Shown: positions 7,948 to 42,491 of the stretch, piece after piece | Layout: each line of letters opens with the position of its first letter | How positions within the stretch are numbered: the stretch's first letter is position 1 | Assembly: GCA_903851135.1 (NCBI GenBank) | Contig: CAINNK010000045.1 | Location: 28,289-92,288 of the forward strand | Direction of reading: 5' to 3' | DNA: 64,000 nucleotides | Origin: an uncultured bacterium | GTDB taxonomy: Bacteria; Patescibacteriota; Minisyncoccia; Moranbacterales; GWC2-37-73 | Position numbers and translations under genes: made by a program | Notes under the pieces: generated by a model | The model's input: only the letters and a program-made list of their open reading frames with translations | Told to the model about the DNA's origin: nothing | Databases searched by the model: none

Positions 7948-7976
7948 TTGACATTAGCCTATTTTTGTGCTACAAT
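7948..7976 (+). promoter_or_regulatory. Consensus sigma70 promoter: TTGACA -35 (7948-7953), 17-nt spacer, TACAAT -10 (7971-7976)
   Basis: Exact consensus hexamers with ideal spacing, ~110 nt upstream of the 8084 operon. An RBS (GAGGAGG) lies 6-12 nt before the ATG. Confidence 0.55.
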
Positions 7977-8083: not shown

Positions 8084-8782
8084 ATGATTGGTCGTGCTAT
8101 AGGGGAAGTGCTCGGAGGTCTTAGTGGAGGAGCGGTGGTTGCTCTTTTGGGAAAGGCCTGGGGCTGGGCAGAGGGAATTTTCAAAACTTTAAATCTTGGG
8201 GATGATTTAAAGAGTAAAGTAACAGAGCATCTTTTTAACCCGAAAGGCTTTAAGGATGAGTTTTACTTTGCAAAATCTATTCAAGAAATTAGTGCGACAG
8301 TTCCGCAAAAGCAAATGTTTGCGGAGGTCATGGAAAAACTTGAGCAAGAGGACAAGTTAAATAAAACAAGGTATGCGAGCAATTTTCGCATAATTGTGAC
8401 CCTCAAAGACGAGGAACCTGTTCCTGTTGGCGGTGTTCGTCCAAGCGTGACTATTTTGCGGGACATTATGGTGAACTGCAAAAATCATGCAGAAATCCTG
8501 GCATGCATAGTTGCTGTTGGTTCTATGCAGGATACAAAAAAAATTATTGAGAAAGTTTTGACTTATGGTAAGGATGTTACCTGGCCAGCGGTTGAAAAAT
8601 TTCTCAAGGATGGCAAGGGGGCGATTACTGAAAATGCAAATGCTTTGGGGGATTATTTGATTGAGGATACTCGAATTTTTACAGAGGAACCCTCAGTTTG
8701 CCCTAATGCAAAAATATCAGAAAAGGTGGCCTCATCTGCCACCTCATGGCTTAAAAAATTCAGAAATTATACCGGAGTTTAA
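8084..8782 (+). CDS. Hypothetical protein (Gly-rich amphipathic N-terminus)
   Basis: 232-aa ORF with a strong RBS and no recognisable motif. Confidence 0.5.
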   Translation: MIGRAIGEVLGGLSGGAVVALLGKAWGWAEGIFKTLNLGDDLKSKVTEHLFNPKGFKDEFYFAKSIQEISATVPQKQMFAEVMEKLEQEDKLNKTRYASNFRIIVTLKDEEPVPVGGVRPSVTILRDIMVNCKNHAEILACIVAVGSMQDTKKIIEKVLTYGKDVTWPAVEKFLKDGKGAITENANALGDYLIEDTRIFTEEPSVCPNAKISEKVASSATSWLKKFRNYTGV

Positions 8783-8785
8783 AAA

Positions 8786-9577
8786 ATGGAAAAAATTGTT
8801 AATATTGGAAAGGGACAGTTTAAAGCTTGGTCCTTTGCTACAAAAAATGTTGTCTTCGCCACGATTATCGTGGCTGTTCTTATCCTTATTTTCAAACCAT
8901 CGATGGCAATTTGCGCCTGGATTTTGTTTCCAGCTTGGTTGCTTTCGGCAATGATGTTCTTTTCGCCGAAGCAAGTCTTTAAAGTTCATGTTTTCGGTGA
9001 AACGCTGGAAGGGTTGACCAGTCTTGGTCAAGGACTGGCCAAAAAAATCAACAAAGATGAACCTGATGGCGGCGAGCCGGCAACGAAAAAAAAGCCCACT
9101 GGCCCATTCAGTAATGCTACGACCGACGGATTTCTTTCACTGGTCAAGAATGTTTTCCTCTTTCAAACAGTGCTGTTCTTAGCACTTCCTCTGTACGTTA
9201 ATTATACAGAAGGCGGTTTGACACTGGGAATTTTTGTTCTTATGGTGGTTGTTGTTGTGGCCCTTGCTATGTGGAGGGTATTTGAATTTTTGTCGAAGAT
9301 TGGTATTGTTTTGTTGGTGCTACTTTATTCAGTCGGTATTTCTTCCGTGCTTTTCCCGCAAATTGGATTTTATTCTGGCAAGCTTTTTGGCGATACACAT
9401 CCAGTAGATCGTCGGGTTGCGAAAACAGAAAATGAAATTAAGGCGGTTAGTGAAGAAAACAAAACAGTCAGGCAGTTGGCTGCAAGAAATGCTGTCCTTG
9501 AAGAGTTAAAGACTAAAAAAATAACTCTTGAAGAACTTAAAAAACAATTAGAGGAGCAAGTAAAGTCGGGAAAATAA
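8786..9577 (+). CDS. Hypothetical polytopic membrane protein (~5 TM) with charged coiled-coil C-terminus
   Basis: Hydrophobic segments at residues ~20-40, 45-60, 120-140, 150-170 and 175-195. Starts 4 nt after the previous stop. Confidence 0.5.
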   Translation: MEKIVNIGKGQFKAWSFATKNVVFATIIVAVLILIFKPSMAICAWILFPAWLLSAMMFFSPKQVFKVHVFGETLEGLTSLGQGLAKKINKDEPDGGEPATKKKPTGPFSNATTDGFLSLVKNVFLFQTVLFLALPLYVNYTEGGLTLGIFVLMVVVVVALAMWRVFEFLSKIGIVLLVLLYSVGISSVLFPQIGFYSGKLFGDTHPVDRRVAKTENEIKAVSEENKTVRQLAARNAVLEELKTKKITLEELKKQLEEQVKSGK

Positions 9578-9588
9578 TCCCGCAAAAA

Positions 9589-9630
9589 TTAAAGGCATGT
9601 GAGATAATATTCTTGCATGCCTTTAAAAAT
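9589..9630 (+). terminator. Rho-independent terminator-like hairpin (AAAGGCATG...CATGCCTTTAAAAA)
   Basis: 9-bp stem. Probably a partial (leaky) terminator within the operon. Confidence 0.4.
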
Positions 9631-9717
9631 ATCCAAAAACCTTTTTATATGAATTGCTATTCTTGAAAATTGTTTTTTGTGCTATAATTTTTGTATAAAT
9701 AAAAATCAATTTTTACT

Positions 9718-11217
9718 ATGGCATTTTTCAATAAAATTTTTCCTGGAATTAATTTTGCAGATGAGCAAAATTCAAAAAAAGAAAATTTAGCAAAAACAAA
9801 AAATCCAAACTTGACGAAGAAAGTTCCAATCTTAATTACTGATGGCGGTAAAGCTGCTGCCGGAAAAGCTGCTCCGCAAAAGATTCAAAAAACTGATCCA
9901 GAAAAAATGGAAAAAGATTTGGCCAGGCTTGTTGAAGTTGCCAACACTTTCGCGGATGAATATGAAAATAGGATCAACAAGGTGCTTGACTCGAAAAATT
10001 TCAACGATGAGCAGCTTGCTGTTATTGAAGAAGAAATCAATCCAGTTTTTGACGCACTGTGGAATTTTGTTCAGCGTTATGATCAGGGTGAGCGATCGTC
10101 TGAAATTTTCAATGGGTTGCGAGATTGCATGCGCAATGCAGAAGCTTTTTTGTTGGAACTTTCACAGTTTCAAAATGAAGGCAAACAAATTATTTTAGAG
10201 GAGGAGAAAAAAAGTTCCAGTGAGGAATTGTTTCAGGTTTGTCGGACTATGGTGGTGGAAACTTTTCAATTGCTGGATGAAGAAATTGGCAGACTTTTGC
10301 CTGGGGAAGATGAGCTGCCGGAAGAAGCATATTTTTTGGACAAATTGAATGAGCTGGAATATGACAATCTGAGTGGTCAGGAAGAAGCTGAGATAGCTGA
10401 GATGCTGAGCATCTTGAAAGCGGAAATTTCCAAGAGTTGGTTGGTCAAGAAAAGGGAATTTGGCAACTATGAATTGGCATGGAAAGCTCAAAATGAAAAA
10501 AGAAGAATATCCGTCAAGGCAGAAATTGAAAATGAACAAACAATACGAGATAATGTTGAAGAAATCTCAGCGAAAAAAGAGGATGATGGTTTGATGCGAC
10601 TGAAAAACTTGGCTGAACAAATCAGAAATCGCGTGCACTACATTGACAAAAATGATTTTGCTAGAAAAGCTGTTTCAAGTAAAGACAAGGTTTATGATTT
10701 TGATTTGCGCAGGGACTTGGCTTATTTTTTGGCAAATAATCAGTTTTTGACGGAAGTGGAAGCGGGAGTTAAAATTGCAAAGACGGCGGCGGATTTTCAA
10801 AAGTTTGAAACTTTGATTTTGCAAGCAGCCGACAATGAAAATATCGGTTATGTGGTTTATGGCGAGCGAACATATATCGTGGATATTGTGGAAATTGAAA
10901 CGCAAAATGGACCCCGTGCTGCGACACAACAGCGGCAGCTGAAAACGGGCGCGGAATTCCCGATGGAATTGCTGAAGGATTTCAAAAAGACCGCCATTGT
11001 TTTTGCGGAAAATTTGAAAAAAGAATCGCAAGAGGAAGTCACGGACATCATCACACAAGAAGAGCAAACTGCTTTGATTAGAATTTTCACTAAGCGCTTT
11101 TTGCGAGAAGTGATTTCGGAGAAAGAAAATTTGCTGCAAGCAAAAATCTTTCAAAACAAAAATGAAAGGGAAAAATTTGTGGAATTTGTTTGTGAATCTA
11201 TTTTTAAGAAAGTTTAA
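9718..11217 (+). CDS. Hypothetical protein, acidic alpha-helical, 499 aa
   Basis: Preceded by a TG-extended -10 (gTGcTATAAT at 9680-9688). No recognisable domains. Confidence 0.5.
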   Translation: MAFFNKIFPGINFADEQNSKKENLAKTKNPNLTKKVPILITDGGKAAAGKAAPQKIQKTDPEKMEKDLARLVEVANTFADEYENRINKVLDSKNFNDEQLAVIEEEINPVFDALWNFVQRYDQGERSSEIFNGLRDCMRNAEAFLLELSQFQNEGKQIILEEEKKSSSEELFQVCRTMVVETFQLLDEEIGRLLPGEDELPEEAYFLDKLNELEYDNLSGQEEAEIAEMLSILKAEISKSWLVKKREFGNYELAWKAQNEKRRISVKAEIENEQTIRDNVEEISAKKEDDGLMRLKNLAEQIRNRVHYIDKNDFARKAVSSKDKVYDFDLRRDLAYFLANNQFLTEVEAGVKIAKTAADFQKFETLILQAADNENIGYVVYGERTYIVDIVEIETQNGPRAATQQRQLKTGAEFPMELLKDFKKTAIVFAENLKKESQEEVTDIITQEEQTALIRIFTKRFLREVISEKENLLQAKIFQNKNEREKFVEFVCESIFKKV

Positions 11218-11222
11218 ATATA

Positions 11223-14200
11223 TTGCTGAATAATATGGGCGAATTCAAAGGGCCACAAGCCTGGCAACAATATTTGGAAAATTCAAGCAAGAAAACCAAA
11301 GGCACTCCTGAGCAGGAGGCTGAGTTTGCAAGTGCTGAGAAAAAAACTATCGAAGAATTGTTTTCGGAAACGCAAAGTTTTGATGACATTGTGGCGGCGG
11401 CTGAAGCTGTTGGCGAAATTCAGGATGGCAAAAAAACTTATACGGCCGCAAATCTCGAAACAATTTTTGCAGCGGTAAAGAAAGATAAAAGTGCCTTGAT
11501 TAATGTGCCGGCAGTTTTCGGTTTGAGGGAGGCGGCCAGTAAAGCTTTGGAAGCAATTGCTCGATTGGAGTATGAACGAAACTTGGAAAATTTATTTGGA
11601 GAATTTAAAACCCTGTTTGAGGCTGATGATTTTACTGGAGTTTTTGAAGCAATGAAAGATAATACTGACTTTGATTTGAAAACAAAAAAAACTAAACTAG
11701 AAGATGAATATAAAAAAATAAGCAAAATATTTGAGCCTGAAAAACTGGCTAATCCTGGTGATGGAAAAACTTTAGGAGAAATTCGTGAAATTTCCGAGCA
11801 GGCAAAGGCAATGCTGGACGCCTATAAAACTAAAGCGGATAATGCTCTCGGAAATCAAGGAGTTAAAGAGTCAAAAGAAAAAATTGAGAAAAAATTTGAT
11901 CCGCAAAATATTGAACAATTATTAGCTAGAGGAGAAACCATTAAGGTTAAAATTGTAAGAGCCAATGGTCTTGAAGAGGATTGGTTGATTGATAATATAG
12001 TTGGTTCAGATGTAATTATTAGTAAAGTTGATGTTACCACGGGAAAGTCTTCAACATTAAATGAAAATCTTAGTAATCTGAAGAAGTATAATACCGATAC
12101 TTATAAGGCTAAGAAAGTAGTTGATCCAAAAGATGATGATGCAGAAAGAGCAAAAATTGAGGAGAAGGTCAAATTTGTAGAAAAATCTGAAGAGAAAAAT
12201 AAAGAGAAAAAAACTGAAAAGCAGAAACTAGAGGCTGAGCAAAGGCTGAAATTTGAATCAAAAAAAGCTGAGGTGGAAAAGAATAATGAAGGAAAAGTAA
12301 AACAGGAAAAAGACACTGAGTTAGTGGAGCGACACAAAAAAATTACTGAAACGATCAAAGAACTTGATGATTGCCGAAAAGTTTACTTGGAAAAAGATTA
12401 TGACAAAACGGCAAAATTGATCAAGATTGGAAAATTTTTCAAGGATGGTTTTGGCGAGAAAAAAGATGCTGCTCAAGAATTTAAAGACAACAGAGAAATC
12501 TCACAAAATGATAAGGAAAACAAGGATTATAAGAAGGAATATGACGATAAACTGAGAGAGCTTCAGGAATTGATTTTGGCTGATGCCAAAAAGCGAGATC
12601 TTTCAAATGAAGAATTGGCAAAACTTTATGCCAGTTTCAGAATTGAGCAAAGACTTACGCTCGCCGATGAACATGATAAAGTTAAGGTTGATAAAATAAC
12701 AGGGACTGGCTATGGTTGGGCGAAAAAGGGAATTAAAGATGTAGCTAATTGGTATCAGAAGTTGGATTGGAAATACAAACTTGCAATTGCTGGCGGACTT
12801 ATGGTAACTGGGGCTGGAGTTGCAGGTTTTACATTGGCTGGTGTCACGGTTGCAGGGGCGGGTGCTACTGCTTCATCTGTTTTTGCTGGGGTTTTGACAG
12901 GCAGAAGACTCTTTGGTGGAGTCGCGGCTGGAGTTGGTGCAAAGGGAGGACTCGAAGTTCGAGGGCAAGCGCGAGATCAAAAGGAAATTGAAAGAGAGCA
13001 AAAAAAAATCTTTGAAGAGTTGGAAAAAGTAAAAGAACAGGATAAAAAATATCAAGAACTTGCAGCTAAATTTGATGATATTATTACAAAAGAAGGGCCA
13101 GATGCTCTAAAAAAAATCAAAAATCAAGATCTTCGTCAAAATCTTTCTGCTGCTGCTACGGGGGTTTTTCTTGGATCTGGTTTAGCTGGAGAATTATTTA
13201 AAATGGGTTTTCATGGGGTTGTGGAATACTTTCAATTAGAACATGCATCTGTTGTTGGTGGCGCTAGTGCTCCTCCTTCAGCAGCAGAGCAACTAAAGGC
13301 CATAGAGGAACTTCAAGGAAAAGGAGGTGGAGCTTCATCAGGAAGTCCTGTTATTGAAAAATCTGGCATATTTTCCGGACACCATTCTATGGAAGCCCCA
13401 GCTGTCCCTGGTTCTAGTGAAACCCTGACAATCAACAAGGGTAGTAGTATTGAGGCTACTTTGAGAGATCATTTGGTGAAAAAATTCCCGGATGCGAAAA
13501 ATCAAGGAAAACTGGCGCACCAGATTTGGCATAATTATATGACTGCCAATAAAGTTTCCATTATTGAAAAAGTTGGTCAAGGTGAATATGACAAAATGCT
13601 CAAAGATGGAATGGTTAATGTTAAAGAAGGCACGAAATTGATTTTTGATGAAAGTGACCCTGGCAAATTAAAATTGGTTGATATTGGTGGAAAAATTTCT
13701 CATTTGAATGTGCATGAACACGTGGCTTCGCACGCAGACGCAGCAGCCCAGCCAATTGCGGAAGCAGCTGCTCCAGCAGTTGAGAACGTTGCCAATGATG
13801 CAGCAGGCTCAGTTCCGGTAGCTGACAGTACACCTTATAATATCGGAACAATTCCTTCAGAGCCGTATAATCCATTTGGAAATCCTGCTAGCTACGGAGA
13901 TCACTTAGCGGTGGGTAATGAAGTTGACCCTGAGATTGATACCGCGGGTTTGGTATATGCGGATGGTCATCAAAGAGTAATTAGTTCTACTGAAAAAATT
14001 ATTTTCGAGTTTGTAGATAAACGGCCATTTATTCAGAATAATCATCGAGAAGGTCTACACGCTGTTAGAAAAATATTTTTTCCAAATGCGAGGGAATATA
14101 ATTTACATAAGGGAGCAAATGTTTATGAGACAATGCAGCGTTACAAAGCAAGTTTGTCACCAAAAGGCAGAAGAATTGCGGAGGTACTTTTAAAATCAAA

Positions 14201-14276
14201 AGAATTTGCGCCTAGCGATAAAGACATTAATGTTGAGAAGTGGACAAGAGAAATAACTTCTAAACTAGCAGCTTAA
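11223..14276 (+). CDS. Large hypothetical protein (1017 aa): Lys/Glu-rich coiled coils with a central Gly/Ala-rich hydrophobic hairpin
   Basis: Long charged heptad-like stretches (KKAEVEKNNEGKVKQEKD...). The hydrophobic segment is LAIAGGLMVTGAGVAGFTLAGVTVAGAGATASSVFAGVL. Starts 6 nt after the previous gene. Confidence 0.5.
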   Translation: MLNNMGEFKGPQAWQQYLENSSKKTKGTPEQEAEFASAEKKTIEELFSETQSFDDIVAAAEAVGEIQDGKKTYTAANLETIFAAVKKDKSALINVPAVFGLREAASKALEAIARLEYERNLENLFGEFKTLFEADDFTGVFEAMKDNTDFDLKTKKTKLEDEYKKISKIFEPEKLANPGDGKTLGEIREISEQAKAMLDAYKTKADNALGNQGVKESKEKIEKKFDPQNIEQLLARGETIKVKIVRANGLEEDWLIDNIVGSDVIISKVDVTTGKSSTLNENLSNLKKYNTDTYKAKKVVDPKDDDAERAKIEEKVKFVEKSEEKNKEKKTEKQKLEAEQRLKFESKKAEVEKNNEGKVKQEKDTELVERHKKITETIKELDDCRKVYLEKDYDKTAKLIKIGKFFKDGFGEKKDAAQEFKDNREISQNDKENKDYKKEYDDKLRELQELILADAKKRDLSNEELAKLYASFRIEQRLTLADEHDKVKVDKITGTGYGWAKKGIKDVANWYQKLDWKYKLAIAGGLMVTGAGVAGFTLAGVTVAGAGATASSVFAGVLTGRRLFGGVAAGVGAKGGLEVRGQARDQKEIEREQKKIFEELEKVKEQDKKYQELAAKFDDIITKEGPDALKKIKNQDLRQNLSAAATGVFLGSGLAGELFKMGFHGVVEYFQLEHASVVGGASAPPSAAEQLKAIEELQGKGGGASSGSPVIEKSGIFSGHHSMEAPAVPGSSETLTINKGSSIEATLRDHLVKKFPDAKNQGKLAHQIWHNYMTANKVSIIEKVGQGEYDKMLKDGMVNVKEGTKLIFDESDPGKLKLVDIGGKISHLNVHEHVASHADAAAQPIAEAAAPAVENVANDAAGSVPVADSTPYNIGTIPSEPYNPFGNPASYGDHLAVGNEVDPEIDTAGLVYADGHQRVISSTEKIIFEFVDKRPFIQNNHREGLHAVRKIFFPNAREYNLHKGANVYETMQRYKASLSPKGRRIAEVLLKSKEFAPSDKDINVEKWTREITSKLAA

Positions 14277-14447
14277 AATAAATAATTTTAAAACAAACAT
14301 TCACCCTGTCAAATAATTTTAAAAAATTACTATTTTTTAAAATTAAGATTGGGGTTTATAATAAAAACGTGAAAACTGTTTAAAATAAAAATTATCACAA
14401 GTAAGTTGTGTCTCCCTGTTGAGACCCAATCTTATTTAACAGGGTAT

Positions 14448-14774
14448 ATGACCGATCAAAACGAAGAAATCAACAGTGCGCAGCAGCAGGCCCTTTCGCA
14501 ACTTATTAAGGATTTGGGAATTGACAGTCTGCCGCAGGACAAGCAAAATGAACTTGTCATTAAAATGACCGAAATCTTGCTCAAGCGGATTTTTCTGGAA
14601 ACTATGGATAAATTGGGCGAGCAAGGACGCGAGGAATATGAAAAAATGTCGCAAGGTGAAATTGAACCAGAGCAAGTAGCGGCTTTTTTCAAGGAAAGAA
14701 TCAATAATTACGACGGTCTAGTAGAAGCTATCGTCAAAGATTTTCGCGAAGAAATGTTGGGAGCAAATCAGTAA
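14448..14774 (+). CDS. Hypothetical small acidic protein (109 aa)
   Basis: The ORF track starts at TTG 14406. An in-frame ATG at 14448 (MTDQNEE...) is the more plausible start. Confidence 0.4.
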   Translation: MTDQNEEINSAQQQALSQLIKDLGIDSLPQDKQNELVIKMTEILLKRIFLETMDKLGEQGREEYEKMSQGEIEPEQVAAFFKERINNYDGLVEAIVKDFREEMLGANQ

Positions 14775-14818
14775 TTAGTAGCTAGTAATCAGTAACCAGT
14801 AATTCGGAAATTAAAAAT

Positions 14819-15253
14819 ATGAAAAGTAATTTGGAACCAATTGAAGATAACGACTTGGATTTTGAAGCAAGGTTTAGAAGACCAGCAAACGACAATTTTC
14901 AGGAGAAAGAGATTCCAATTCATGCGGCAGAAAAAGAAATGTCGACAGAGGTCAGTTCAGCTGAAAATGATTCAGCTTATGGCAAAATTCTTTCAAAAGT
15001 TCAGGCACAAACTGATGATGATGTTAATCAGGATGAACTTTCTCAGGATGCTCAAGCCTTGGCTCAAAAAACCGATGCACAATCGAGAGTCAGTTATCTG
15101 ATTGACATTGCTGGACAAAAGGGGGTTGTCTATGCAGTGAAAGTTGCCCGTCAAATGGAAGACAATTATGTTTTGGACAATTTTCATGACAAACTTTTGG
15201 GCAGTGAATTGCACGATGCTTTGGTGGCAAGGGGAATGATTAAAGAACTTTAA
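14819..15253 (+). CDS. Hypothetical acidic protein (144 aa)
   Basis: Open frame in operon context; no motifs. Confidence 0.4.
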   Translation: MKSNLEPIEDNDLDFEARFRRPANDNFQEKEIPIHAAEKEMSTEVSSAENDSAYGKILSKVQAQTDDDVNQDELSQDAQALAQKTDAQSRVSYLIDIAGQKGVVYAVKVARQMEDNYVLDNFHDKLLGSELHDALVARGMIKEL

Positions 15254-15387
15254 AAAGTTTCTGTAAAACTTTTTAAAGAATTTTTAATTTAAAATTTTTA
15301 ATTTAAAATGAAATCTAAATTCAAGAAATTCTGAAAATTAGGGAATTTAATTGATTTAAAATTTAGGCGTTTAAAATTTAATAAAAA

Positions 15388-15410
15388 TTTCAAATTTCAA
15401 ATTTCAAATT
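15388..15410. repeat. Tandem heptamer (CAAATTT)x3-4 in AT-rich spacer
   Basis: The same heptamer array recurs at 31768-31798 and in related form at 39561-39588. A (TTTTTAA)x4 array lies at 39450-39478. Confidence 0.6.
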
Positions 15411-15443
15411 GATTTTAAAATATAAAAAACAAAAATAATACAA

Positions 15444-17924
15444 ATGGACACTCTTGATCTGAATATTTTTATCGTTCCATTGATGTGGTTTTTCTCAATC
15501 GCAGTTTTTGGCAGTGGAATTTTTATGATTCTGCGCAGTTGGTTGAATTTTCGCGCACAGGTGAATCGTAGCATGAACATGGATTTGGAAGTTGTTAGGG
15601 TGACCAAAATTTTCAAAGATAAGAATGAAAAAGCTGGGGATAATCAATCCTGGAAGGAGGAAATTGGTGCGATGGAACAATTACTTGTGACGCTGGCTAG
15701 TATTAAAGAAAAAAAATCCATTCTGGGTCATCTTTTATATAGTGAGCCGTATCTTGCGCTTGAAATTGCCAATCCCTCTAGTAGTGAGGAAATCTTTTTC
15801 TATTTGGCTGTTCCACGCAAATTTCGTGAAAGTATTGAAAAGCAAGTACATAGTTATTTTCCAAACGCTTCGGTGGAAAAAGTTCCAGACTACACAATTT
15901 TCATGCCTGGCAGTTTCACGGCGGCAGCTTCACTGACTTTGAAGCGGGGTCATGCTCTGCCAATTACAACCTATGAGCACATGGACATTGATCCGCTTAA
16001 TGAAATTTCAAACGCTTTGAGCAAATTGGAAACTTTGGATGAAGGGGCGGTGATTCAACTGATCTTGCGACCAGCCGGTAAGGCTTGGCGAAGGCATGGC
16101 AAGGAAATTGCTCACAAAATGCAACAAGGTCAACAACTTAAGGACGCCAACAGTTCCTTGGCAATGGAGCTTGGCAAAGGCGCTATTCAAGTTTTTAGAA
16201 CTAGCAATAATTCGGAAAATCAATTTCAAAAAGGCACGGTTCAACTTACACCAGAAGAGCAAGAATTGCTCAAGAAAATTGAAACCAAATCCAACAAGGT
16301 TGGCTTTAGGGTGAACATTCGGTTGCTCGCCTCAGCCAGAACTCAACAGCGCGCTGATGAAGTGTTGGCTCACATTGAAAATTCCTTTGCTCAGTTTGAA
16401 AATCATGAAGTCAATCATTTTATTGTCAAAAAAAGATTAAAGGGCAAAAAGATTGCCTATGATTATATCTTTAGGAATTTTGACGAAGATAATTCAGTGA
16501 TTCTCTCTACGGAAGAGATTTCCAGTATTTTTCATTTTCCAATCTCTACCACAGAAACTCCGAAAATAAAATGGCTCAAATCCGGAGCGGCGCCACCGCC
16601 AATGAATATTCCCGAGACTGGAATTTTGCTGGGCTATAATGATTATCGGGGTGCAAGAACTGAAATAAGACTAAGCGACAATGATCGACGTCGGCATCTT
16701 TATGCTATTGGGCAAACTGGAACGGGAAAATCTAATTTTCTCCAAGAAATGGCCAAGCAAGATGCGAAAAATGGCAAAGGTTTTTGCTTTATTGATCCTC
16801 ATGGTGATGCGATTGAAGATATTCTGACTTCCATTCCCAAAGAGCGTGCGGAAGATGTGATCATTTTTGATCCTTCTGATATGGAACGCCCATTTGGACT
16901 AAATATGCTTGAATATGATCCGATGCATCCCGAACAAAAAACTTTTGTGATCAATGAAATGATTGGAATTTTCGATCAACTCTATGATTTGAAAGCCACT
17001 GGTGGTCCGATGTTTGAGCAATATGTGCGCAATGCGATGCTTTTGATTATGGAGGACCCGGAATCCGGCAGTACTTTGATGGAAATTTCCAAGGTGTTGG
17101 CTGATGAAGATTTTCGCAAGATGAAACTGACCAAATGCAAAAATCCCGTGGTGTCAGATTTTTGGATCAAGGAAGCTGAAAAGGCTGGAGGGGATGCAGC
17201 CCTGGCCAATATGGTGCCTTACATTACTTCAAAGCTTACAACTTTTGTTTCCAATGACATGATGCGCCCAATCATCGCACAGCAAAAAAGTACGCTCAAT
17301 TTTCGAGAAATCATGGATGATGGAAAAATTTTGTTGGTGAAGCTTTCCAAGGGAAAAATTGGCGAAATCAATGCGCATCTTTTGGGAATGGTGATTGTGG
17401 GGAAAATTTTGATGAACGCTTTGGCCCGTGGGGACATGCCGGAAGATCAAAGGCGAGATTTCTATCTTTATTTGGATGAATTTCAAAATGTCACCACAAA
17501 TTCAATTTCGCAAATTCTTTCTGAGGCGCGAAAATATCGTCTGTGTTTGGTGATTGCCCATCAATTTATTGGACAACTTAGTGAACCAATTTCTAAGGCG
17601 GTTTTCGGTAACGTTGGCTCAATGATTGCCTTGCGAGTCGGTCCGGAAGATGGGGAATTTTTGGAAAAACAATTTGCGCCAATTTTTTCAGCTAGCGACT
17701 TGGTTAATGTTGACAACTACAAAGGTTTTGCGCGGGTGCTGCTTAATGGCGAACTTTCCAAACCTTTTAATGTTAATTTTTATCCCCCAACGCGAGGCAA
17801 TCAGGAAATCGCAAATTATCTCAAGGAACTTTCTCGTCTCAAATATGGTCGCGACGCTGAAATCGTCAATCGTGAAATCATGGAACGCGCCAAATTTGCC
17901 CGACAAGCGAGTTCAGGTTTTTAG
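15444..17924 (+). CDS. Membrane-anchored P-loop ATPase of the FtsK/HerA/TraD-VirD4 clade (T4SS coupling-protein-like)
   Basis: N-terminal TM. Walker A LYAIGQTGTGKSNF, followed by the FIDPHGD box, then Walker B FYLYLDEFQN. Size 826 aa. Confidence 0.6.
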   Translation: MDTLDLNIFIVPLMWFFSIAVFGSGIFMILRSWLNFRAQVNRSMNMDLEVVRVTKIFKDKNEKAGDNQSWKEEIGAMEQLLVTLASIKEKKSILGHLLYSEPYLALEIANPSSSEEIFFYLAVPRKFRESIEKQVHSYFPNASVEKVPDYTIFMPGSFTAAASLTLKRGHALPITTYEHMDIDPLNEISNALSKLETLDEGAVIQLILRPAGKAWRRHGKEIAHKMQQGQQLKDANSSLAMELGKGAIQVFRTSNNSENQFQKGTVQLTPEEQELLKKIETKSNKVGFRVNIRLLASARTQQRADEVLAHIENSFAQFENHEVNHFIVKKRLKGKKIAYDYIFRNFDEDNSVILSTEEISSIFHFPISTTETPKIKWLKSGAAPPPMNIPETGILLGYNDYRGARTEIRLSDNDRRRHLYAIGQTGTGKSNFLQEMAKQDAKNGKGFCFIDPHGDAIEDILTSIPKERAEDVIIFDPSDMERPFGLNMLEYDPMHPEQKTFVINEMIGIFDQLYDLKATGGPMFEQYVRNAMLLIMEDPESGSTLMEISKVLADEDFRKMKLTKCKNPVVSDFWIKEAEKAGGDAALANMVPYITSKLTTFVSNDMMRPIIAQQKSTLNFREIMDDGKILLVKLSKGKIGEINAHLLGMVIVGKILMNALARGDMPEDQRRDFYLYLDEFQNVTTNSISQILSEARKYRLCLVIAHQFIGQLSEPISKAVFGNVGSMIALRVGPEDGEFLEKQFAPIFSASDLVNVDNYKGFARVLLNGELSKPFNVNFYPPTRGNQEIANYLKELSRLKYGRDAEIVNREIMERAKFARQASSGF

Positions 17925-18002: not shown

Positions 18003-18425
18003 ATGGCTATGAAAGCGATAAATGAGGAAAAATTAAGAGAAATTGCCCAAAAGCACGAGTTGAAATTGTTGCTGGTTTTTGGTTCGCAGGCAAGTGGAAA
18101 AACGCATAAATTTAGCGATTATGATTTTGGTTTTTTGGCTAATGCTAAGCTTAATTATCAGCAGAAAAGTGAGCTTGAAAATGATTTGGCAAAATTGGTG
18201 GCCTGTCAATTCGTGGAAGTTGTTGATTTGAAAAAAGCCTCTCCTTTTATGCTGAAAGAGATTATTAAAAATAATCAGCTTCTTTTTGAACAGGAATTTG
18301 AATATGAAAATTTCTTTTCCTATGCGGTGCGAACTTATTTGGACGCTGAAAAATTGTTCAATTTGCAAGACCAGCTTTACACCCAGACAATTAAGAAATA
18401 TAAAGAAAAAATATATGCCCAATAA
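18003..18425 (+). CDS. MNT-type nucleotidyltransferase (antitoxin of an MNT/HepT pair)
   Basis: Minimal NTase motif GSQASGK...SDYDFGFL (GS...DxD). Confidence 0.55.
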   Translation: MAMKAINEEKLREIAQKHELKLLLVFGSQASGKTHKFSDYDFGFLANAKLNYQQKSELENDLAKLVACQFVEVVDLKKASPFMLKEIIKNNQLLFEQEFEYENFFSYAVRTYLDAEKLFNLQDQLYTQTIKKYKEKIYAQ

Positions 18426-18837
18426 AGAATTACTTAGGCGGAAAATTAATAAAATTGAAAACTATATTAAGGAAATCGAACCCTTATTAGTGCTAACTAG
18501 CAACGAAATTGTCAGTGATATTTTGAAGTTGCGAACGGTGGAGCGGAATTTTCAATTAATTGTTGACACAATGCTGGATATTAATACGCACATTATTTCT
18601 AGTGAAAATCTTAAAACTCCTGAAACCTTGCAAGAAACCTTTTTAATACTTGGTGATGGTGGTGTTTTGCCAGTTGATTTCGTCAAAAAGATTGCTCCTG
18701 TGGTTGGCCTGCGAAATATTGTGGTGCATGAATATGAAAAAGTGGATAACGAAAAAATGATGCAAGACCTCAAGGACGGAATTTCCCAGTTTGGCGAGTA
18801 TCTTATCAGTATTGATAATTTTTTGCAAAAAGCTTAG
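18415..18837 (+). CDS. HepT/DUF86 HEPN-family toxin
   Basis: Overlaps the MNT gene by 11 nt. C-terminal Rx4HxY motif RNIVVHEY. The in-frame start at 18415 (MPNKELL...) is preferred over the track start at 18286. Confidence 0.55.
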   Translation: MPNKELLRRKINKIENYIKEIEPLLVLTSNEIVSDILKLRTVERNFQLIVDTMLDINTHIISSENLKTPETLQETFLILGDGGVLPVDFVKKIAPVVGLRNIVVHEYEKVDNEKMMQDLKDGISQFGEYLISIDNFLQKA

Positions 18838-18870
18838 TCTTTTTTGGAATTCAAAATATAAAAACAAAAA

Positions 18871-18899
18871 AATCCCGCTTCTTTGGAAGCGGGATTTTT
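18871..18899. terminator. Bidirectional rho-independent terminator (AATCCCGCTTC-TTTG-GAAGCGGGATTTTTG)
   Basis: Perfect stem with flanking A-run and T-run, between the convergent genes. Confidence 0.6.
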
Positions 18900-18928: not shown

Positions 18929-19615
18929 TTATTTAGCGGGTCTCTTGATAATTAAATCTTGTGCTGGGTTGTCGGTTTTGAGATTATCGATAATTTTTTC
19001 AGCAACGTCATCAACTAGCATATATTCTTTGATATCATCGGGATATTTTTCTTGATAAATTTCAGTTTGCATTCCTCCCGGATAAATGGCGTATATTTTG
19101 ATGTCTTCTGAGACTTCTTTTCTGATTGATTCAGTCAGGCCCTTTATTGCAAATTTTGAGGAGCAATAGGCGCTTATCAATGGTTTTCCATCAAGACCAG
19201 CCGTTGAATCGACATTTATTATGGTCCCACTTTTCTGAGTTTTCATAATTTTTAAAGCTACTTGGCAACCATAAAAATAACCAAAAAAATTAATATCAAA
19301 CAATCTTTTTAGTTTAGCGATATTTACATCCTCGACTAAGCTAGGGGCAATTTGGATGCCAGCATTATTAATCCAAATATCAATCACACCATATTTACTG
19401 ATAACATAGGTGGCAAGATTTTCGAGGTCTTCTGACTTCGTTACATCAGCCAAAGAAAAGTCTGCTGATATTTCCTGGCTTACTTTTTTCAAATCTTCAA
19501 TGTTGTCACTTGAAACAATCACTCGGCAATTTTCTTTTTTAAAAAACTCAGCCAATGATTTTCCAAAGCCCTTACTTCCGCCAGTGATAATAACTACCTT
19601 ATTTGTTAGGTTCAT
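18929..19615 (-). CDS. Short-chain dehydrogenase/reductase (SDR)
   Basis: N-terminal TGGSKGFG Rossmann motif, NNAG motif and YxxxK motif (YCSSK). Confidence 0.75.
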   Translation of the reverse strand: MNLTNKVVIITGGSKGFGKSLAEFFKKENCRVIVSSDNIEDLKKVSQEISADFSLADVTKSEDLENLATYVISKYGVIDIWINNAGIQIAPSLVEDVNIAKLKRLFDINFFGYFYGCQVALKIMKTQKSGTIINVDSTAGLDGKPLISAYCSSKFAIKGLTESIRKEVSEDIKIYAIYPGGMQTEIYQEKYPDDIKEYMLVDDVAEKIIDNLKTDNPAQDLIIKRPAK

Positions 19616-22613: not shown

Positions 22614-23621
22614 ATGGGAATCGAAGATGGAGGTTTTAACCTTCCGCAAAAAAAAGAGAAGAATTCTAAAGATGAGCGCAAAAAAGGAACAGGCGAATTT
22701 ACACCTGATGAAGGTAGCGAGCAAATTCCCTCTTTAATGGGAAAATGGAAAGTAAATGAGGGCGAGATAGAAGAACTTTTTTTGGAAAACAAAAAAAACG
22801 CTGAGTTGAAACGCGAGGAATGGGAACAAAAAGTTGAGTCAGTGGATTCTTTTGAAGAAAATCAAGTTGTTATTGAAGCTAAAGCCACTTTTGAAAAAGG
22901 AGAATGGGATATTCCAGGGCTTGAAAGTCCAAAATCAATTCAAAATGATCCAATGTTCAAAGACAGTGCGGTGGAGTTATTAAAAAATGGTTCTTTCAAT
23001 ATTTATGACGGTGTCGATTATAAAGATGCTGATTATATAAGTAATTATACATTTTGTTCTTCACCTTATCCAGCTGAATCATTTTTTTCTGCAGATGGAA
23101 AAAAAGTCGAGGTTGGTGGTGAAAAAGGATTTCTTTGGGCTCAGCATATTGGAAAAATTGGAAGACGTAATAATTCAAAACAATTAGAAGAATATTACAG
23201 ATATGAGGCGACGGAAAAAATAAGTGTGGGAGACTGGGAAAAGCTTAAAGAAAAATTTGGTTCAGTTGTTTTAGATCATGGATATAGAAATAAAGATGGT
23301 GAAATTGAAAAAGCAGAATATATAAAACTTTATGCACACAATGGTTATCCACTTTTGATAGTTCGAAAAAGTGAAGGAGATATTGAGGTAGTTGGTGGCA
23401 ATGAAGTTCAAGATCTTCAATTAAATGTGTCAAATGAATTTTCTTATGGCAGTGAATATAATGAACTTGCAGATAAAGAGGAGGATTCAGTTGTTGCGTA
23501 TAAGATAAGAGCGCATAAGATAAGCAAGAAAGAGAATGAGATTAGATCAAAGGAAATAGGTTCTCTCAAGAATGATTTTGAGAAGACAGTGTATTTAATT
23601 TCTGCTGTGTGGCAACATTAA
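22614..23621 (+). CDS. Hypothetical acidic protein (335 aa) carried between the palindromes
   Basis: No TnpB-like RuvC or zinc-finger motifs. Function unknown. Confidence 0.4.
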   Translation: MGIEDGGFNLPQKKEKNSKDERKKGTGEFTPDEGSEQIPSLMGKWKVNEGEIEELFLENKKNAELKREEWEQKVESVDSFEENQVVIEAKATFEKGEWDIPGLESPKSIQNDPMFKDSAVELLKNGSFNIYDGVDYKDADYISNYTFCSSPYPAESFFSADGKKVEVGGEKGFLWAQHIGKIGRRNNSKQLEEYYRYEATEKISVGDWEKLKEKFGSVVLDHGYRNKDGEIEKAEYIKLYAHNGYPLLIVRKSEGDIEVVGGNEVQDLQLNVSNEFSYGSEYNELADKEEDSVVAYKIRAHKISKKENEIRSKEIGSLKNDFEKTVYLISAVWQH

Positions 23622-23644
23622 TTTCTCTTTCTAGTAAGAAATAG

Positions 23645-41738: not shown

Positions 41739-41810
41739 GCCACCCTAGCTCAACGGTAGAGCTACTGTTTTGTAAACAGTAGGTTATCGGTTCAAATCCG
41801 GTGGGTGGCT
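41739..41810 (+). tRNA. tRNA-Thr (anticodon UGU)
   Basis: Hand-folded cloverleaf: acceptor GCCACCC/GGGTGGC, D arm GCTC-AACGGTA-GAGC, anticodon arm ACTGT-TTTGTAA-ACAGT, T arm AGGTT..TTCAAAT..CCGGT wait-checked as GGTTATCGG/TTCAAAT/CCGG. No encoded CCA. Confidence 0.7.
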
Positions 41811-41923
41811 CAAGGAGATGTAGAATGTATTATGTAGAAATGTATGATGTATTTTGTAGTATGTATAATGTATGTGATTTAATGCATGATACTTTATACA
41901 AAATACATAATACTTGAGCCCAG

Positions 41924-42006
41924 GGGTAGATACCAAAGTGGTCAACTGGATCTGGCTGTAAACCAGACGGCTTACGCCTTCGGGGGTTCGAATCCCTCTC
42001 TGCCCA
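41924..42006 (+). tRNA. tRNA-Tyr (anticodon GUA), long variable arm
   Basis: Acceptor GGGTAGA/TCTGCCC (one G-U pair), anticodon arm TCTGG-CTGTAAA-CCAGA, long variable arm, T arm GGGGG-TTCGAAT-CCCTC. Confidence 0.75.
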
Positions 42007-42021
42007 CAAAATTTAAAACAA

Positions 42022-42046
42022 ATGCCCCTCAAGGCATTGGTTTTTA
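42022..42046 (+). terminator. Hairpin AATGCC-CCTCAAG-GCATTGG followed by a T-run
   Basis: Stem plus TTTTT directly after tRNA-Tyr. Confidence 0.4.
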
Positions 42047-42244
42047 ATTTTGTATGATAGTGAAAAGGGATTCGAACCGGCAGCAGTGAGCTAGAAATTT
42101 TTCAGTAGGAAAATTTCGCAGCGAACGCCGACAAATGCGGATGAGCATTTGGCGCTGCCGCGGACAAGGAGTTTGTGAGTGTCGACGAACAAACGATGCG
42201 ACGCTTATTTCTTAACCCAGTTCTTATCACTACCAAATTGTATT

Positions 42245-42317: not shown

Positions 42318-42491
42318 CAGGAAATTTAAAAGGTATGGCGCCCCAGCACCAAATTCCGAAAAGAATTTGAGGTTGGATAAAATTTTCTTCACGGAAACGC
42401 CTCCGGCTTAGGTTAGTAATAATTGTAAATTTTAATAAAGAATTGGTGCGGGACGCTCATATTTGTAGCTGTTCGTACCTCACAGACAAAT

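Follow-up and report, generated by a model that had tools for sequence, protein, structure and literature searches.

What function does a membrane-anchored, translocase-type ATPase serve when it closes a run of otherwise unclassifiable genes in a bacterial chromosome? The window (the whole stretch of 64,000 nucleotides analysed here) belongs to the chromosome of a Candidatus Moranbacteria organism (CPR/Patescibacteria) and contains seven plus-strand genes at positions 8084–17924. A sequence-only reading had described this segment as a same-strand operon of eight genes with gaps of 4–140 nt. Its ORFs and coordinates were reproduced, but the number of genes is seven, as many as the sizes it listed, and the gaps range from 3 to 190 nt. 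By ORF calling, the genes encode proteins of 232 aa (8084–8782), 263 aa (8786–9577), 499 aa (9718–11217), 1017 aa from a TTG codon (11223–14276; 1013 aa from the ATG at 11235, the start in public gene calls), 122 aa from a TTG codon (the DUF5663 protein, 14406–14774; 108 aa from the ATG at 14448, as in 108-aa homologues), 144 aa (14819–15253) and 826 aa (the ATPase, 15444–17924). The successive gaps are 3, 140, 5, 129 (171 from the ATG at 14448), 44 and 190 nt. None of the three longer gaps fully contains a plus-strand ORF of 20 aa or more, and the single gap ORF found (37 aa, 9677–9790) overlaps the start of the 499-aa gene. The GC content of the window is about 37% and about 7% of random codons are stops; by our own arithmetic, an open frame of at least 232 codons arises by chance with a probability of about 1e-7. 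Homologues or positional equivalents of all seven genes occur elsewhere.

A consensus scan located a near-consensus sigma-70-like site (TTGACA-17-TACAAT with a TG extension, 11/12) on the plus strand at 7948–7976, approximately 108 nt upstream of the first gene, which is a candidate operon promoter. The same scan indicated no convincing terminator inside the cluster. The earliest convincing one on the 3' side is a strong, bidirectional terminator-like hairpin with a 14 bp stem at 18868–18899, beyond an MNT/HepT toxin–antitoxin pair (Pfam) that directly follows the cluster. This pair is a strain-specific insertion and is missing in the related loci L001, L002 and L089.

In the 826-aa protein, an N-terminal transmembrane (TM) helix is followed by a DUF8128 domain and then by a P-loop domain like that of TrwB/VirD4. 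Hydropathy placed the single hydrophobic anchor at aa 6–30 (15459–15533, plus strand), and DUF8128, with an alpha/beta fold resembling the N-terminal domain of VirB4, spans aa 36–392 (15549–16619, plus strand). All three motifs read earlier from the letters are present: Walker A GQTGTGKS (aa 423–430; 16710–16733, plus strand), the FIDPHGD box (aa 449–455) and Walker B LYLDEFQ (aa 675–681; 17466–17486, plus strand). The Walker A G, G and K and the Walker B D678 and E679 are invariant across 38 homologues, down to 29% identity. The Pfam profile search that had been proposed gave matches to TrwB_AAD_bind (34 bits, cutoff 20.5) and TraG-D_C (24.3 bits, cutoff 22). The family profile matched TrwB (1.3e-8) and DotL (8e-6) in the PDB, with no match to VirB4 or FtsK. 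The full-length model compared by Foldseek was that of a homologue 44% identical to the 826-aa protein; it gave a target-normalised TM-score of 0.61–0.68 to TrwB and also matched Cag-beta. The earlier assignment to an N-terminally anchored P-loop ATPase of the VirD4/VirB4/HerA/FtsK superfamily is thus borne out by Pfam, the PDB profile and the anchor. Specifically, the ATPase is a hybrid of two type IV secretion system (T4SS) motor families, the VirB4 and VirD4 types. It links a VirB3-like single TM anchor and the VirB4-N-terminal-domain fold of DUF8128 to a nucleotide-binding domain of the TrwB/VirD4 type that has a helical insert, and its P-loop half resembles the coupling proteins TrwB and DotL.

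This ATPase is not lineage-specific, as had been supposed. Its family is very large (5,515 clusters at 50% identity, E<=1e-30) and already annotated, as DUF8128 in Pfam and as "TraM recognition / T4SS DNA-binding domain protein". Each of the 80 species-level loci retrieved has a Patescibacteria genome context; some record titles name other taxa and are probably mislabelled. The gene is chromosomal in every locus examined, on contigs up to complete chromosomes, and is syntenic with holB/ftsQ, SecY-Adk-Map, CysRS and CorA. Its commonest neighbour is the holB (DNA polymerase III delta-prime) family, at 21 loci from two ATPase subgroups, while ftsQ adjoins it in Moranbacteria. The housekeeping synteny shared by many species and a GC content like that of the surroundings indicate vertical inheritance, not an island; ATPase identity across Moranbacteria is 70–99%. 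Neither the window nor the neighbourhoods of up to 10 kb around the ATPase at the 80 loci yielded a VirB4, PrgI, VirB6-like or Replic_Relax gene. In agreement with the sequence-only reading, no VirB4 or relaxase was detected by Pfam among 39 window ORFs, namely the 9 of the cluster and 30 others including every non-overlapped ORF of at least 249 aa; a pilin might still be encoded by one of the shorter ORFs elsewhere in the window. Such ATPases have been counted as orphan type IV coupling proteins (T4CPs) in the literature. VirD4-like T4CPs are encoded by 2,918 of 3,035 Patescibacteria genomes and VirB4 by 2,417, only 148 of 5,713 T4CPs lie near virB4, and in Southlakia a T4CP homologue (of the DUF8128 type or another) is dispensable while the T4SS is essential (PMC12102498). 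We read the Patescibacteria ATPase, encoded apart from virB4 and with no relaxase-like gene nearby, as a domesticated one.

The 144-aa protein has a disordered acidic N-terminus and a conserved C-terminal helical domain with the motif KGV..AV.VA....D.Y.LD.FHD.L. The family is unannotated and had no Pfam or PDB match. Among 66 informative loci, it is encoded directly upstream of the ATPase in 25 (-3 to 172 nt) and fused to the ATPase N-terminus in 21, and another small protein occupies the slot in 15; a small partner is therefore upstream of or fused to the ATPase in 61 of the 66. The stand-alone family and the fused N-termini were aligned by hhalign with a probability of 98% (E 1.8e-13). The TM anchor is missing in all 21 partner-fused ATPases and present in 39 of the 40 unfused ones. 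From adjacency and fusion, the 144-aa protein probably binds the ATPase. The conserved functional unit across diverse Patescibacteria lineages is this two-gene module of the 144-aa protein and the ATPase. The proposal that the whole cluster forms one operon module, and the neighbourhood survey suggested with it, therefore held for this pair, which is broadly co-conserved, but not for the rest: the 1017-aa family and DUF5663 do not extend beyond Moranbacteria-like lineages, and the first three genes are variable.

As anticipated, none of the upstream proteins matched a characterised family. The 232-aa protein has a Gly-rich amphipathic or hydrophobic N-terminal segment (aa 5–23, by hydropathy) and had no match in Pfam, NCBIfam, PADLOC, PHROG or PDB. 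It is 35% identical to its L002 equivalent and has no BLAST match to the same-slot genes (225 and 232 aa) of L089/L090. The 263-aa protein, likewise of no matched family, has about five TM segments and a charged, coiled-coil-like C-terminal tail by hydropathy, as described before; it is 34% identical to its L002 equivalent, and in L089/L090 its slot is taken by 4-TM proteins without detectable similarity. The 499-aa protein is acidic and soluble, with a variable part in its N-terminal half. Its C-terminal core is common to the 312- and 279-aa proteins of L089/L090 (45–48% identity over 210–258 aa), with no homologue in L002. The 1017-aa protein is Lys/Glu-rich and helical and has two Gly/Ala-rich hydrophobic segments, the central one noticed earlier (aa 519–560) and another at aa 641–663. 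Its C-terminal domain begins with a LysM-like "TI.KGSSIE", although the LysM match is weak (E 0.01, one member). Only 6 homologues exist in 5.8e9 proteins. By family profile, this family, which includes a 313-aa short form, lies upstream of DUF5663 in every Moran-type locus with that stretch on the contig. The DUF5663 (PF18908) assignment is based on a Pfam match of E 5e-5 (24.2 bits, cutoff 23.7). This small acidic protein is 75–83% identical in relatives and occurs in 13 of 83 loci, never more than a few kb from the ATPase but in varying gene order. The net charges of the DUF5663 and 144-aa proteins are -12 and -13.

A seven-slot layout (about 230 aa; polytopic, about 250 aa; acidic; large TM-hairpin; DUF5663; 144-aa; ATPase) recurs in L002, L089 and L090 (of L089 and L090, only L089 carries the ATPase itself), while in L001 four genes are collapsed into a single 313-aa gene. 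The upstream proteins are 29–48% identical or undetectable between these genomes, compared with 82–87% for the ATPases (87% for that of L089) and 74–80% for PMT and holB. The first three genes are hypervariable cassettes, replaced or hyper-diverged. In Moranbacteria-like lineages the two-gene module is apparently co-transcribed with the genes for DUF5663 and for the large protein with coiled coil and TM hairpin, and with the three hypervariable genes. We read the products of these upstream genes as envelope or contact proteins that evolve fast and do not make up a fixed secretion channel.

Far relatives of the ATPase are encoded in T4SS clusters of monoderm plasmids, serving as the coupling ATPase in conjugation systems of the monoderm type; others occur on archaeal plasmids and in Bacillus phages. 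On an Embleya plasmid, genes for a TrbL-like protein, PrgI, a VirB4-type ATPase, a relative of the present ATPase, Replic_Relax and NlpC/P60 stand in a row; the SPO1-like Bacillus phage Goe9 and phage Thrax3 have ParM, the relative and Replic_Relax. In all three bacterial-host contexts inspected (one plasmid, two phages), a gene for the DNA-processing protein Replic_Relax adjoins the relative.

These observations bear on four alternative functions. Structural channel components are normally conserved together with their motor. The sequence-only reading took the seven genes for one self-contained, lineage-specific machine, in which the 263- and 1017-aa proteins would make up a channel or scaffold powered by the ATPase. 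The shared strand, short gaps, single upstream promoter-like site, lack of a convincing terminator inside the cluster and recurring seven-slot layout agree with this, as does L059, where a large Gly-zipper protein and DUF5663 are linked to the ATPase in another gene order. Such a machine is nevertheless rather improbable, given the loss of detectable similarity in slots 1–3 beside 82–87% identical ATPases, the L001 collapse and the absence of the upstream genes beside the ATPase in most lineages; nor did the upstream proteins match VirB6, VirB8, VirB10 or pilin families (Pfam) or any T4SS protein encoded by the Embleya plasmid. A housekeeping role as an FtsK-like DNA pump, in cell division or in segregating the chromosome, would explain the common superfamily, the near-universal chromosomal occurrence, the holB and ftsQ neighbours and the ParM-like actins beside the phage relatives. 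We consider it distinctly improbable: no FtsK_SpoIIIE or FtsK-gamma match was obtained in Pfam at E<=0.1, and by sequence and by fold the top matches are to T4CP and VirB4 instead of FtsK. Furthermore, FtsK has a multi-TM N-terminal domain, whereas the ATPase has one TM helix or, when fused, none, and the anchorless forms are hard to square with a septal pump. Very improbable is an anti-phage defence ATPase (HerA- or MADS mad8-like) or the remnant of a decayed integrated conjugative element or prophage. PADLOC matched mad8 (E 3e-13) and HerA weakly, but only in the generic P-loop region, and a nuclease, Sir2 or methylase partner is lacking. The full-length match to PHROG 5156 (E 1e-86), the plasmid and phage homologues and the adjacent MNT/HepT pair also speak for this reading; against it, the mobile-element homologues are only 20–28% identical, the pair is strain-specific, and the conserved synteny, high identity and ambient GC of the ATPase point to vertical descent.

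The remaining alternative is that the ATPase recruits proteins instead of DNA, with DUF5663 and the 144-aa protein as chaperones or adaptors and the 232-, 499- and 1017-aa proteins as effectors for export or as surface proteins, employed against or on a host cell. A small acidic protein beside a T4CP is the classic chaperone/adaptor layout (IcmS/W-DotL, VirE1-VirE2), and here two lie directly upstream of a T4CP-type ATPase. The upstream proteins evolve far faster than their neighbours and have no N-terminal signal peptide by inspection and simple hydropathy. In Patescibacteria, relaxases are nearly absent and protein export has been suggested as a role of the T4SS (PMC12102498, PMC10633639), which also favours this explanation. 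Residues 17–101 of the 499-aa protein match a Bartonella BID domain (4yk2), but this match is weak and unconfirmed (E 0.0044) and lies in a Lys-rich, poorly conserved segment; the chaperone fold of the small acidic proteins is likewise only putative. DUF5663 and the putative substrates are limited to Moranbacteria-like lineages. The ATPase–partner pair, by contrast, occurs throughout Patescibacteria, set among housekeeping genes, and its ancestral function therefore cannot depend on DUF5663 or these substrates. Protein export is accordingly somewhat unlikely as the function of the module, even though a chaperone-plus-effector arrangement fits the small acidic and the hypervariable, signal-peptide-less proteins of the same unit about as well.

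We take the module for a part of a DNA-transfer machine that has been domesticated, and not for a whole new secretion system, and we tentatively favour an orphan coupling-type translocase with its adaptor, acting on DNA as the most probable substrate. The ATPase would act as a hexamer associated with the membrane, a translocase or coupling motor driven by ATP; its small partner may serve as adaptor or regulator, and the substrate would be passed on to an envelope apparatus whose genes lie elsewhere. DNA is chosen only by ancestry and analogy, since in most lineages the module has no linked gene for a substrate, DNA-binding partner, relaxase or channel. The small partner can be likened to CagZ on Cag-beta, IcmS/W on DotL and TraM on TraD. 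In its action, the ATPase module would be similar to CedD, an orphan VirD4-like protein that serves the Ced DNA-import system of Sulfolobales.

The cluster at 8084–17924 contains seven genes and not the eight counted in the sequence-only reading: the open reading frames of 232, 263, 499, 1017, 122, 144, and 826 aa are all present on the plus strand, and no further plus-strand ORF lies in any of the three longer gaps. Read from the ATG, the 122-aa ORF encodes 108 aa, and the 1017-aa ORF encodes 1013 aa when its first ATG is taken as the start. The intergenic gaps range from 3 to 190 nt; apart from one gap figure and the gene count, the earlier description of the cluster is essentially correct. 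The membrane features described for the cluster proteins are backed by simple hydropathy, and the Walker A, FIDPHGD, and Walker B motifs of the ATPase are at the positions claimed. A sequence scan located a near-consensus promoter-like site upstream of the cluster (7948–7976) and the first strong terminator-like hairpin downstream of it (18868–18899). No convincing terminator was found by the scan between these two sites, and the layout is compatible with one transcription unit. The 190-nt spacer preceding the ATPase gene (15254–15443) is extremely AT-rich and carries three tandem copies of AAATTTC followed by AAATTG (repeat at 15385–15411); transcription of the ATPase gene could start internally or be regulated here. 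The setting is chromosomal, with holB, ftsQ, glycosyltransferases, RmuC, RF-1, ribosomal protein S2, and tRNAs encoded in the window. A Pfam scan of 39 window ORFs, including every non-overlapped ORF of at least 249 aa, detected no VirB4, relaxase, or other T4SS gene, which bears out the reported absence of a classical T4SS.

The last gene of the cluster (15444–17924, plus strand) had been described as a TraD/VirD4/HerA-type membrane ATPase, and rightly so, as its sequence is closest to the coupling proteins. In Pfam, it passes TrwB_AAD_bind (34.0 bits, cutoff 20.5) and TraG-D_C (24.3 bits, cutoff 22), falls below the cutoff of T4SS-DNA_transf (15 bits, cutoff 20.1), and barely passes DUF87 over aa 412–483 only (24.4 bits, cutoff 23.2). 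A profile of 38 ATPase sequences matched TrwB (1.3e-8), DotL (8e-6), and HerA (1e-3) in the PDB, and neither VirB4 nor FtsK was among its hits. The protein is not a housekeeping FtsK: FtsK_SpoIIIE and FtsK-gamma gave no Pfam match at E ≤ 0.1, and a single TM helix is predicted instead of the multi-TM N-terminal domain and gamma domain of FtsK/SpoIIIE. At the same threshold, no match was obtained to the VirB4 families CagE_TrbE_VirB (PF03135), AAA_10, P-loop_TraG, and TraC_F_IV. The scores lie far under every cutoff of the NCBIfam equivalogs (TraD, CD1115, CedD, HerA, and others), with 15–17 bits against cutoffs of 800–850 for the HerA models and 20.8 bits against a cutoff of 600 for CedD (NF053655). 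The modelled N-terminal domain is VirB4-like and not a HAS barrel as in HerA, and no NurA- or Sir2-type neighbor is present. The catalytic site is intact, and its residues are invariant in 38 homologues down to 29% identity.

Hydropathy analysis placed the hydrophobic anchor in one segment (aa 6–30). Between the anchor and the ATPase domain, PF26449 (labelled DUF8128) is annotated in all 120 listed homologues, one of which is 99% identical; from this precomputed annotation, the window ATPase almost certainly belongs to the same Pfam family. The DUF8128 region alone (aa 36–392) was modelled with a pLDDT of 82 and a pTM of 0.83, and the full-length AF2 model of a 44%-identical homologue has a pLDDT of 83.5. 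The best Foldseek hit of this full-length model is TrwK, which is collinear with it over ~880 columns (E 5e-15): a VirB4 N-terminal domain fold is followed by a C-terminal ATPase domain. The ATPase half of the homologue model superposes on TrwB with target-normalised TM-scores of 0.61–0.68 over 410–470 columns (Foldseek). In the same model, which is of the homologue and not of the window protein, six helices (aa 587–691) lie between Walker A and Walker B. Since the sequence matches are to coupling proteins, the model is collinear with TrwK, and its ATPase half superposes on TrwB, the protein is, as modelled, a VirB3-like anchor joined to a VirB4-like N-terminal domain and a VirD4-like motor. 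To our knowledge this architecture is undescribed; the genes themselves have been annotated and counted, and no published description of such a VirB4/VirD4 hybrid was found in the literature. No papers on DUF8128 or DUF5663 came up in a literature search.

Candidatus Moranbacteria and other Patescibacteria (CPR) supply the closest homologues of the ATPase, which are encoded on contigs of up to 484 kb and on complete chromosomes. The family comprises 21,355 clusters of 50% identity at E ≤ 1e-3 and 5,515 at E ≤ 1e-30. When one genome per species was scanned, more than 600 stretches matched, at least 596 of which encode an ATPase relative; the best 80 of these stretches read as Patescibacteria genome context, and some of their records are named for other taxa, probably by mislabelling. 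The family thus spans the Patescibacteria, and the module is not lineage-specific as had been proposed. VirD4-like T4CPs were counted in 2,918 of 3,035 Patescibacteria genomes, and VirB4 in 2,417 genomes, but only 148 of 5,713 T4CPs were near virB4 (PMC12102498). VirB4, PrgI, VirB6-like proteins, relaxases, and Replic_Relax were found neither in the 64-kb window nor within 10 kb of the ATPase in the 80 species-level loci, and phmmer searches with Replic_Relax, PrgI, VirB4, and TrbL-like queries returned nothing from the loci or the window. The possibility of a displaced Replic_Relax among the downstream genes conserved in other lineages was rejected, as inspection identified these genes as encoding NDK, MetAP, an RNase-J-like MBL protein, CysRS, CorA, and a methyltransferase. 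A defence-system role, raised by mad8 and HerA hits, was rejected on the synteny and vertical inheritance of the ATPase.

The most frequent non-partner neighbor of the ATPase is a holB-like gene (DNA polymerase III delta-prime), present at 21 loci from two ATPase subgroups (L015, L017, L018, L020, L023, L024, L026, L028, L029, L058, L068, L073, L076, L081, and the loci of Moranbacteria-like lineages). It encodes 300 aa and lies upstream in Moranbacteria; elsewhere it encodes 500–609 aa, and in one group it lies downstream, often after a conserved protein of ~220 aa that has no Pfam match. Some long family members (P0176–P0195; 1,267–2,006 aa) contain the whole ATPase at the N-terminus, followed by a C-terminal extension of 500–1,200 aa.

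Co-conservation was examined by calling ORFs in 83 loci, clustering them, and building profiles; 66 loci had enough upstream sequence. This neighborhood survey found broad co-conservation for the 144-aa protein and the ATPase, and the other cluster genes did not share it. The 144-aa protein is encoded immediately upstream of the ATPase (–3 to 172 nt) in 25 of the 66 loci, and its domain is fused to the ATPase N-terminus in 21, giving fused ATPases of 908–968 aa. Many of the fused-form loci adjoin SecY-Adk-Map, and most carry Paceibacteria-type record names. The fused N-termini match the profile of stand-alone partners with E-values down to 4e-11 (hhalign probability 98%, E 1.8e-13). The hydrophobic anchor is missing from all 21 fused ATPases and is present in 39 of 40 unfused ones. 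A fusion that goes together with anchor loss is strong genomic evidence that the small protein would be a physical partner of the ATPase. The same slot is occupied in 15 further loci (Falkow-, Uhr-, Magasanik-, and Komeilibacteria-type) by an unrelated protein of ~165 aa; that it might be a divergent 144-aa homologue was rejected for the Falkow-, Uhr-, and Magasanikbacteria-type protein (hhalign probability 0.1%), which is a different family at the same position. An apparent internal duplication, in which the 144-aa family HMM reached aa 250–335 of the ATPase, was also rejected as profile contamination, as a profile built only from stand-alone proteins gave E > 100. Searches of Pfam, NCBIfam, PADLOC, PHROGs, and PDB sequences with the six non-ATPase cluster proteins yielded nothing except DUF5663.

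The 108/122-aa protein matches DUF5663 (PF18908) over 83 of 84 profile positions, narrowly above the cutoff (24.2 versus 23.7 bits, E 5e-5), and the domain is also annotated in L001, L002, L089, and L090. Of the 83 loci, 13 have it, in each case close to the ATPase but in varying gene orders. Only six homologues of the 1017-aa protein were found among 5.8 billion proteins; two subfamilies are linked by hhalign at 98.9%, and a family profile detected a member upstream of DUF5663 in every Moranbacteria-type locus with that stretch on the contig. The short form of this family is 313 aa, and in L001 a single 313-aa gene replaces four genes. In L059, DUF5663 lies downstream of the ATPase and follows a 1045-aa protein of similar architecture. 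The window proteins were compared with their relatives in L089, L090, and L002, of which L090 ends after DUF5663 and contains neither the 144-aa nor the ATPase gene. The ATPase is 87% identical in L089 and 82% in L002; DUF5663 is 83% (L089), 79% (L090), and 75% (L002) identical, the 144-aa partner 62% (L089) and 57% (L002), and the neighboring PMT and holB products 74–80% in L089/L090, with 66% for PMT in L002. The 1017-aa family is 42–43% identical in L089/L090 and 29% in L002. The 499-aa protein aligns partially at 45–48% in L089/L090 and has no homologue in L002, while the 232- and 263-aa proteins are 34–35% identical in L002 and gave no BLAST match in L089/L090, where their slots are filled by genes of equal size and membrane character. 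Slots 1–3 (the 232-, 263-, and 499-aa genes) are hypervariable: the layout is conserved and the sequences are not, a pattern that speaks for envelope, contact, or cargo proteins under diversification and against channel subunits of fixed form. The upstream proteins had no Pfam or NCBIfam match to VirB6/TrbL, VirB8, VirB10, or VirB2 pilin at E ≤ 0.1, and no sequence similarity to the TrbL-like protein and PrgI of an Embleya plasmid. Two weak leads were obtained. One is a LysM-like motif in one member of the 1017-aa family (E 0.01). The other is a match of aa 17–101 of the 499-aa protein (9766–10020) to a Bartonella effector BID domain (phmmer E 0.0044, 19.6 bits); BID is a signal domain recognised by VirD4 coupling proteins. 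The L089/L090 homologues do not conserve this Lys-rich segment, so the match may be compositional. The cluster described as an operon is a composite, in which variable accessory genes accompany a conserved core of two genes.

Downstream of the ATPase, a minus-strand gene at 19775–22294 encodes an 839-aa protein with one predicted TM helix (aa 541–559) and no match in Pfam, PADLOC, or PHROG. It is the convergent downstream neighbor of the ATPase in 11 of 11 Moranbacteria-type loci (45–57% identity), and its product may belong with the ATPase module. In the window, the two genes are separated by overlapping ORFs of an MNT/HepT toxin-antitoxin pair (MNT, a Polbeta nucleotidyltransferase, E 8e-17; HepT, E 8e-25) and a minus-strand gene for a 228-aa short-chain-dehydrogenase-like protein (18003–18837 and 18929–19615). 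In L001, L002, and L089, the 839-aa gene directly follows the ATPase with no intervening genes, so the toxin-antitoxin pair and the 228-aa gene look like strain-specific insertions. On a haloarchaeal plasmid that encodes a homologous ATPase, an NTase/DUF86 pair also lies within a few kb. In the window, the 839-aa gene and the conserved 203-aa/RmuC genes are separated by genes for a very acidic 335-aa protein without a Pfam match and an IS200-like Y1 transposase (E 4.5e-7) at 22614–24394, both absent from this position in L001 and L002. At 41739–54329, a cluster of four tRNAs (Thr, Tyr, Thr, Trp) precedes a type I restriction-modification system that is complete (HsdM, a DUF4145 protein, HsdS, a 233-aa unknown protein, and HsdR). 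Next come a fragment of a YgjP-like peptidase, a large serine recombinase, and two DNA methylases, of which one is fused to ParB-N; this segment looks like an integrated mobile or defence island beside tRNA genes.

Relatives of the ATPase are also found on phages and plasmids. PHROG 5156 matches it over the full length (E 1e-86), and tblastn returned 92 phage records, almost all of Bacillus, of which 55 encode relatives with 20–23% identity covering at least 80% of the ATPase; phage G gp156 shares the DUF8128 fold. In the SPO1-like phage Goe9 (L084, gp27.9–gp27.3) and phage Thrax3 (L085), a conserved block consists of ParM/actin-like and small membrane proteins, a DUF8128-type ATPase, and Replic_Relax, with the ATPase gene between the ParM/actin-like and Replic_Relax genes. 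No published function for this block was found in the literature; it may be a DNA segregation or transfer device. The plasmid matches amount to 292 records from Streptomyces, Bacillus, Clostridium, haloarchaea, and Sulfolobus. The Embleya plasmid encodes a complete monoderm-type T4SS set: TrbL-like, PrgI, VirB4-type ATPase, DUF8128-type ATPase, Replic_Relax, and NlpC/P60. Its VirB4-type ATPase matches the VirB4 Pfam models and resembles the DUF8128-type family only marginally (E 5e-5 or weaker), and the presence of both ATPases side by side points to two distinct paralogous roles. In haloarchaea, DUF8128 is a separate ORF: on a Natrinema plasmid (L087, 7737–11931), a 382-aa DUF8128 ORF lies directly upstream of, and overlaps, a gene for a 1018-aa T4CP-like ATPase. 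In this pair the architecture is naturally divided over two ORFs, whereas Patescibacteria have it as one fused protein. A Replic_Relax gene adjoins the ATPase in all three bacterial-host contexts inspected (the two Bacillus phages and the Embleya plasmid), and none is annotated in the inspected haloarchaeal plasmid locus. These contexts indicate that the ancestral setting was a conjugation-type coupling ATPase paired with a DNA-processing protein, and that the Patescibacteria ATPase is no longer linked to a T4SS or paired with Replic_Relax.

From these results, the ATPase would be a hexameric, membrane-associated, ATP-driven translocase or coupling motor, with the small partner acting as an adaptor or regulator. 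By analogy, DNA is favored as the substrate because of the ancestry in Replic_Relax-linked coupling ATPases, the TrwB-like nucleotide-binding domain, the precedent of CedD in DNA import (PMC11823120), and the dispensability of the T4CP homologue in Southlakia, which comEC shares; the paper that reports the T4CP as dispensable (PMC12102498) states that exaptation “cannot be ruled out”. An effector-plus-chaperone model fits nearly as well in the particular case of the Moranbacteria cluster, but it cannot account for the phylum-wide core of ATPase and partner. A more far-reaching proposal is that the DUF8128 ATPase and its partner form a VirB4-independent, Patescibacteria-wide motor, an intermediate or chimera of VirB4 and VirD4, which in Moranbacteria would export, or insert into the membrane, the hypervariable proteins with coiled coils and TM hairpins that are encoded upstream; in the episymbiotic lifestyle, these would act in host contact or target the host membrane. 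We consider this proposal improbable; if true, the cluster would be an unrecognised minimal secretion system with its own fast-diversifying cargo.

Much of bacterial diversity belongs to the Patescibacteria, which live attached to host cells, and the movement of DNA and protein across their envelope is largely unexplained. The literature has left open the role of their orphan VirD4-like coupling proteins, to which the present analysis adds an anatomy: ancestry among coupling ATPases of monoderm and archaeal conjugation, and an obligate small partner that in one large group (mostly Paceibacteria-type records) is fused in place of the anchor. The main value lies in the modelled VirB4/VirD4 hybrid architecture, this anchor-replacing fusion, and the hypervariable Moranbacteria envelope-gene cassette, a candidate host-interaction locus. 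The ATPase offers a possible view of how VirB4 and VirD4 diverged, and with its partner it makes a well-defined unit of two proteins that genetics in cultivable Saccharibacteria could test.

Among known systems, the T4CPs (VirD4/TraG/TraD; TrwB of R388, PDB 1E9R; DotL; Cag-beta) share with the window ATPase the P-loop domain, the helical insert between Walker A and Walker B, and the N-terminal membrane anchor; the Pfam T4CP models TrwB_AAD_bind and TraG-D_C pass, and TrwB is the best PDB match. In contrast, the window ATPase has one TM helix and canonical T4CPs have two, and its DUF8128 region of ~350 aa, resembling the VirB4 N-terminal domain, is not covered by the solved T4CP hits. We know of no canonical T4CP with such a domain between the anchor and the ATPase domain. 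The window ATPase is also unlinked to virB4, a relaxase, or any T4SS gene, and has its own small partner, which is sometimes fused. VirB4/TraC/TrbE proteins (TrwK of R388, PDB 7O42/8RTD) have the same two-domain architecture of N-terminal and C-terminal ATPase domains, and the N-terminal TM helix mimics VirB3–VirB4 fusions; however, the window ATPase has no VirB4-family sequence match, and VirB4 is not among the profile–PDB hits.

The DUF8128-type “T4CPs” of plasmids and phages (Embleya WP_331738717, Goe9 gp27.4, phage G gp156, PHROG 5156) possess the full-length DUF8128 and TrwB-like ATPase but are only 20–28% identical to the window ATPase. On the two inspected Bacillus phages they are joined by ParM, and on the Embleya plasmid by a full T4SS set, whereas the Patescibacteria genes are chromosomal, lack Replic_Relax, and have gained either the 144-aa partner or, in some classes, the unrelated ~165-aa protein. 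The orphan VirD4-like T4CPs of Patescibacteria, near-universal and rarely near virB4 like the window ATPase, are probably the same genes (Quinonero-Coronel et al., 2025; PMC12102498). That study counts the genes; the VirB4-like domain, the partner in its conserved or fused form, the association of fusion with anchor loss, the Moranbacteria accessory genes, and the lost Replic_Relax link are not described in it. CedD/TedD of Sulfolobales and Thermoproteales are likewise chromosomal VirD4-like ATPases encoded apart from T4SS-derived machinery, with or without a membrane anchor depending on the species, and have a domesticated, non-conjugative function (PMC11823120). The role of CedD has been demonstrated experimentally: DNA import in Sulfolobales requires this orphan ATPase, whose orthologues may be without the TM anchor (PMC11823120), whereas the window ATPase is known here from its sequence and models. 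Judged by these likenesses, CedD is the best functional analogue of the window ATPase, and not its orthologue.
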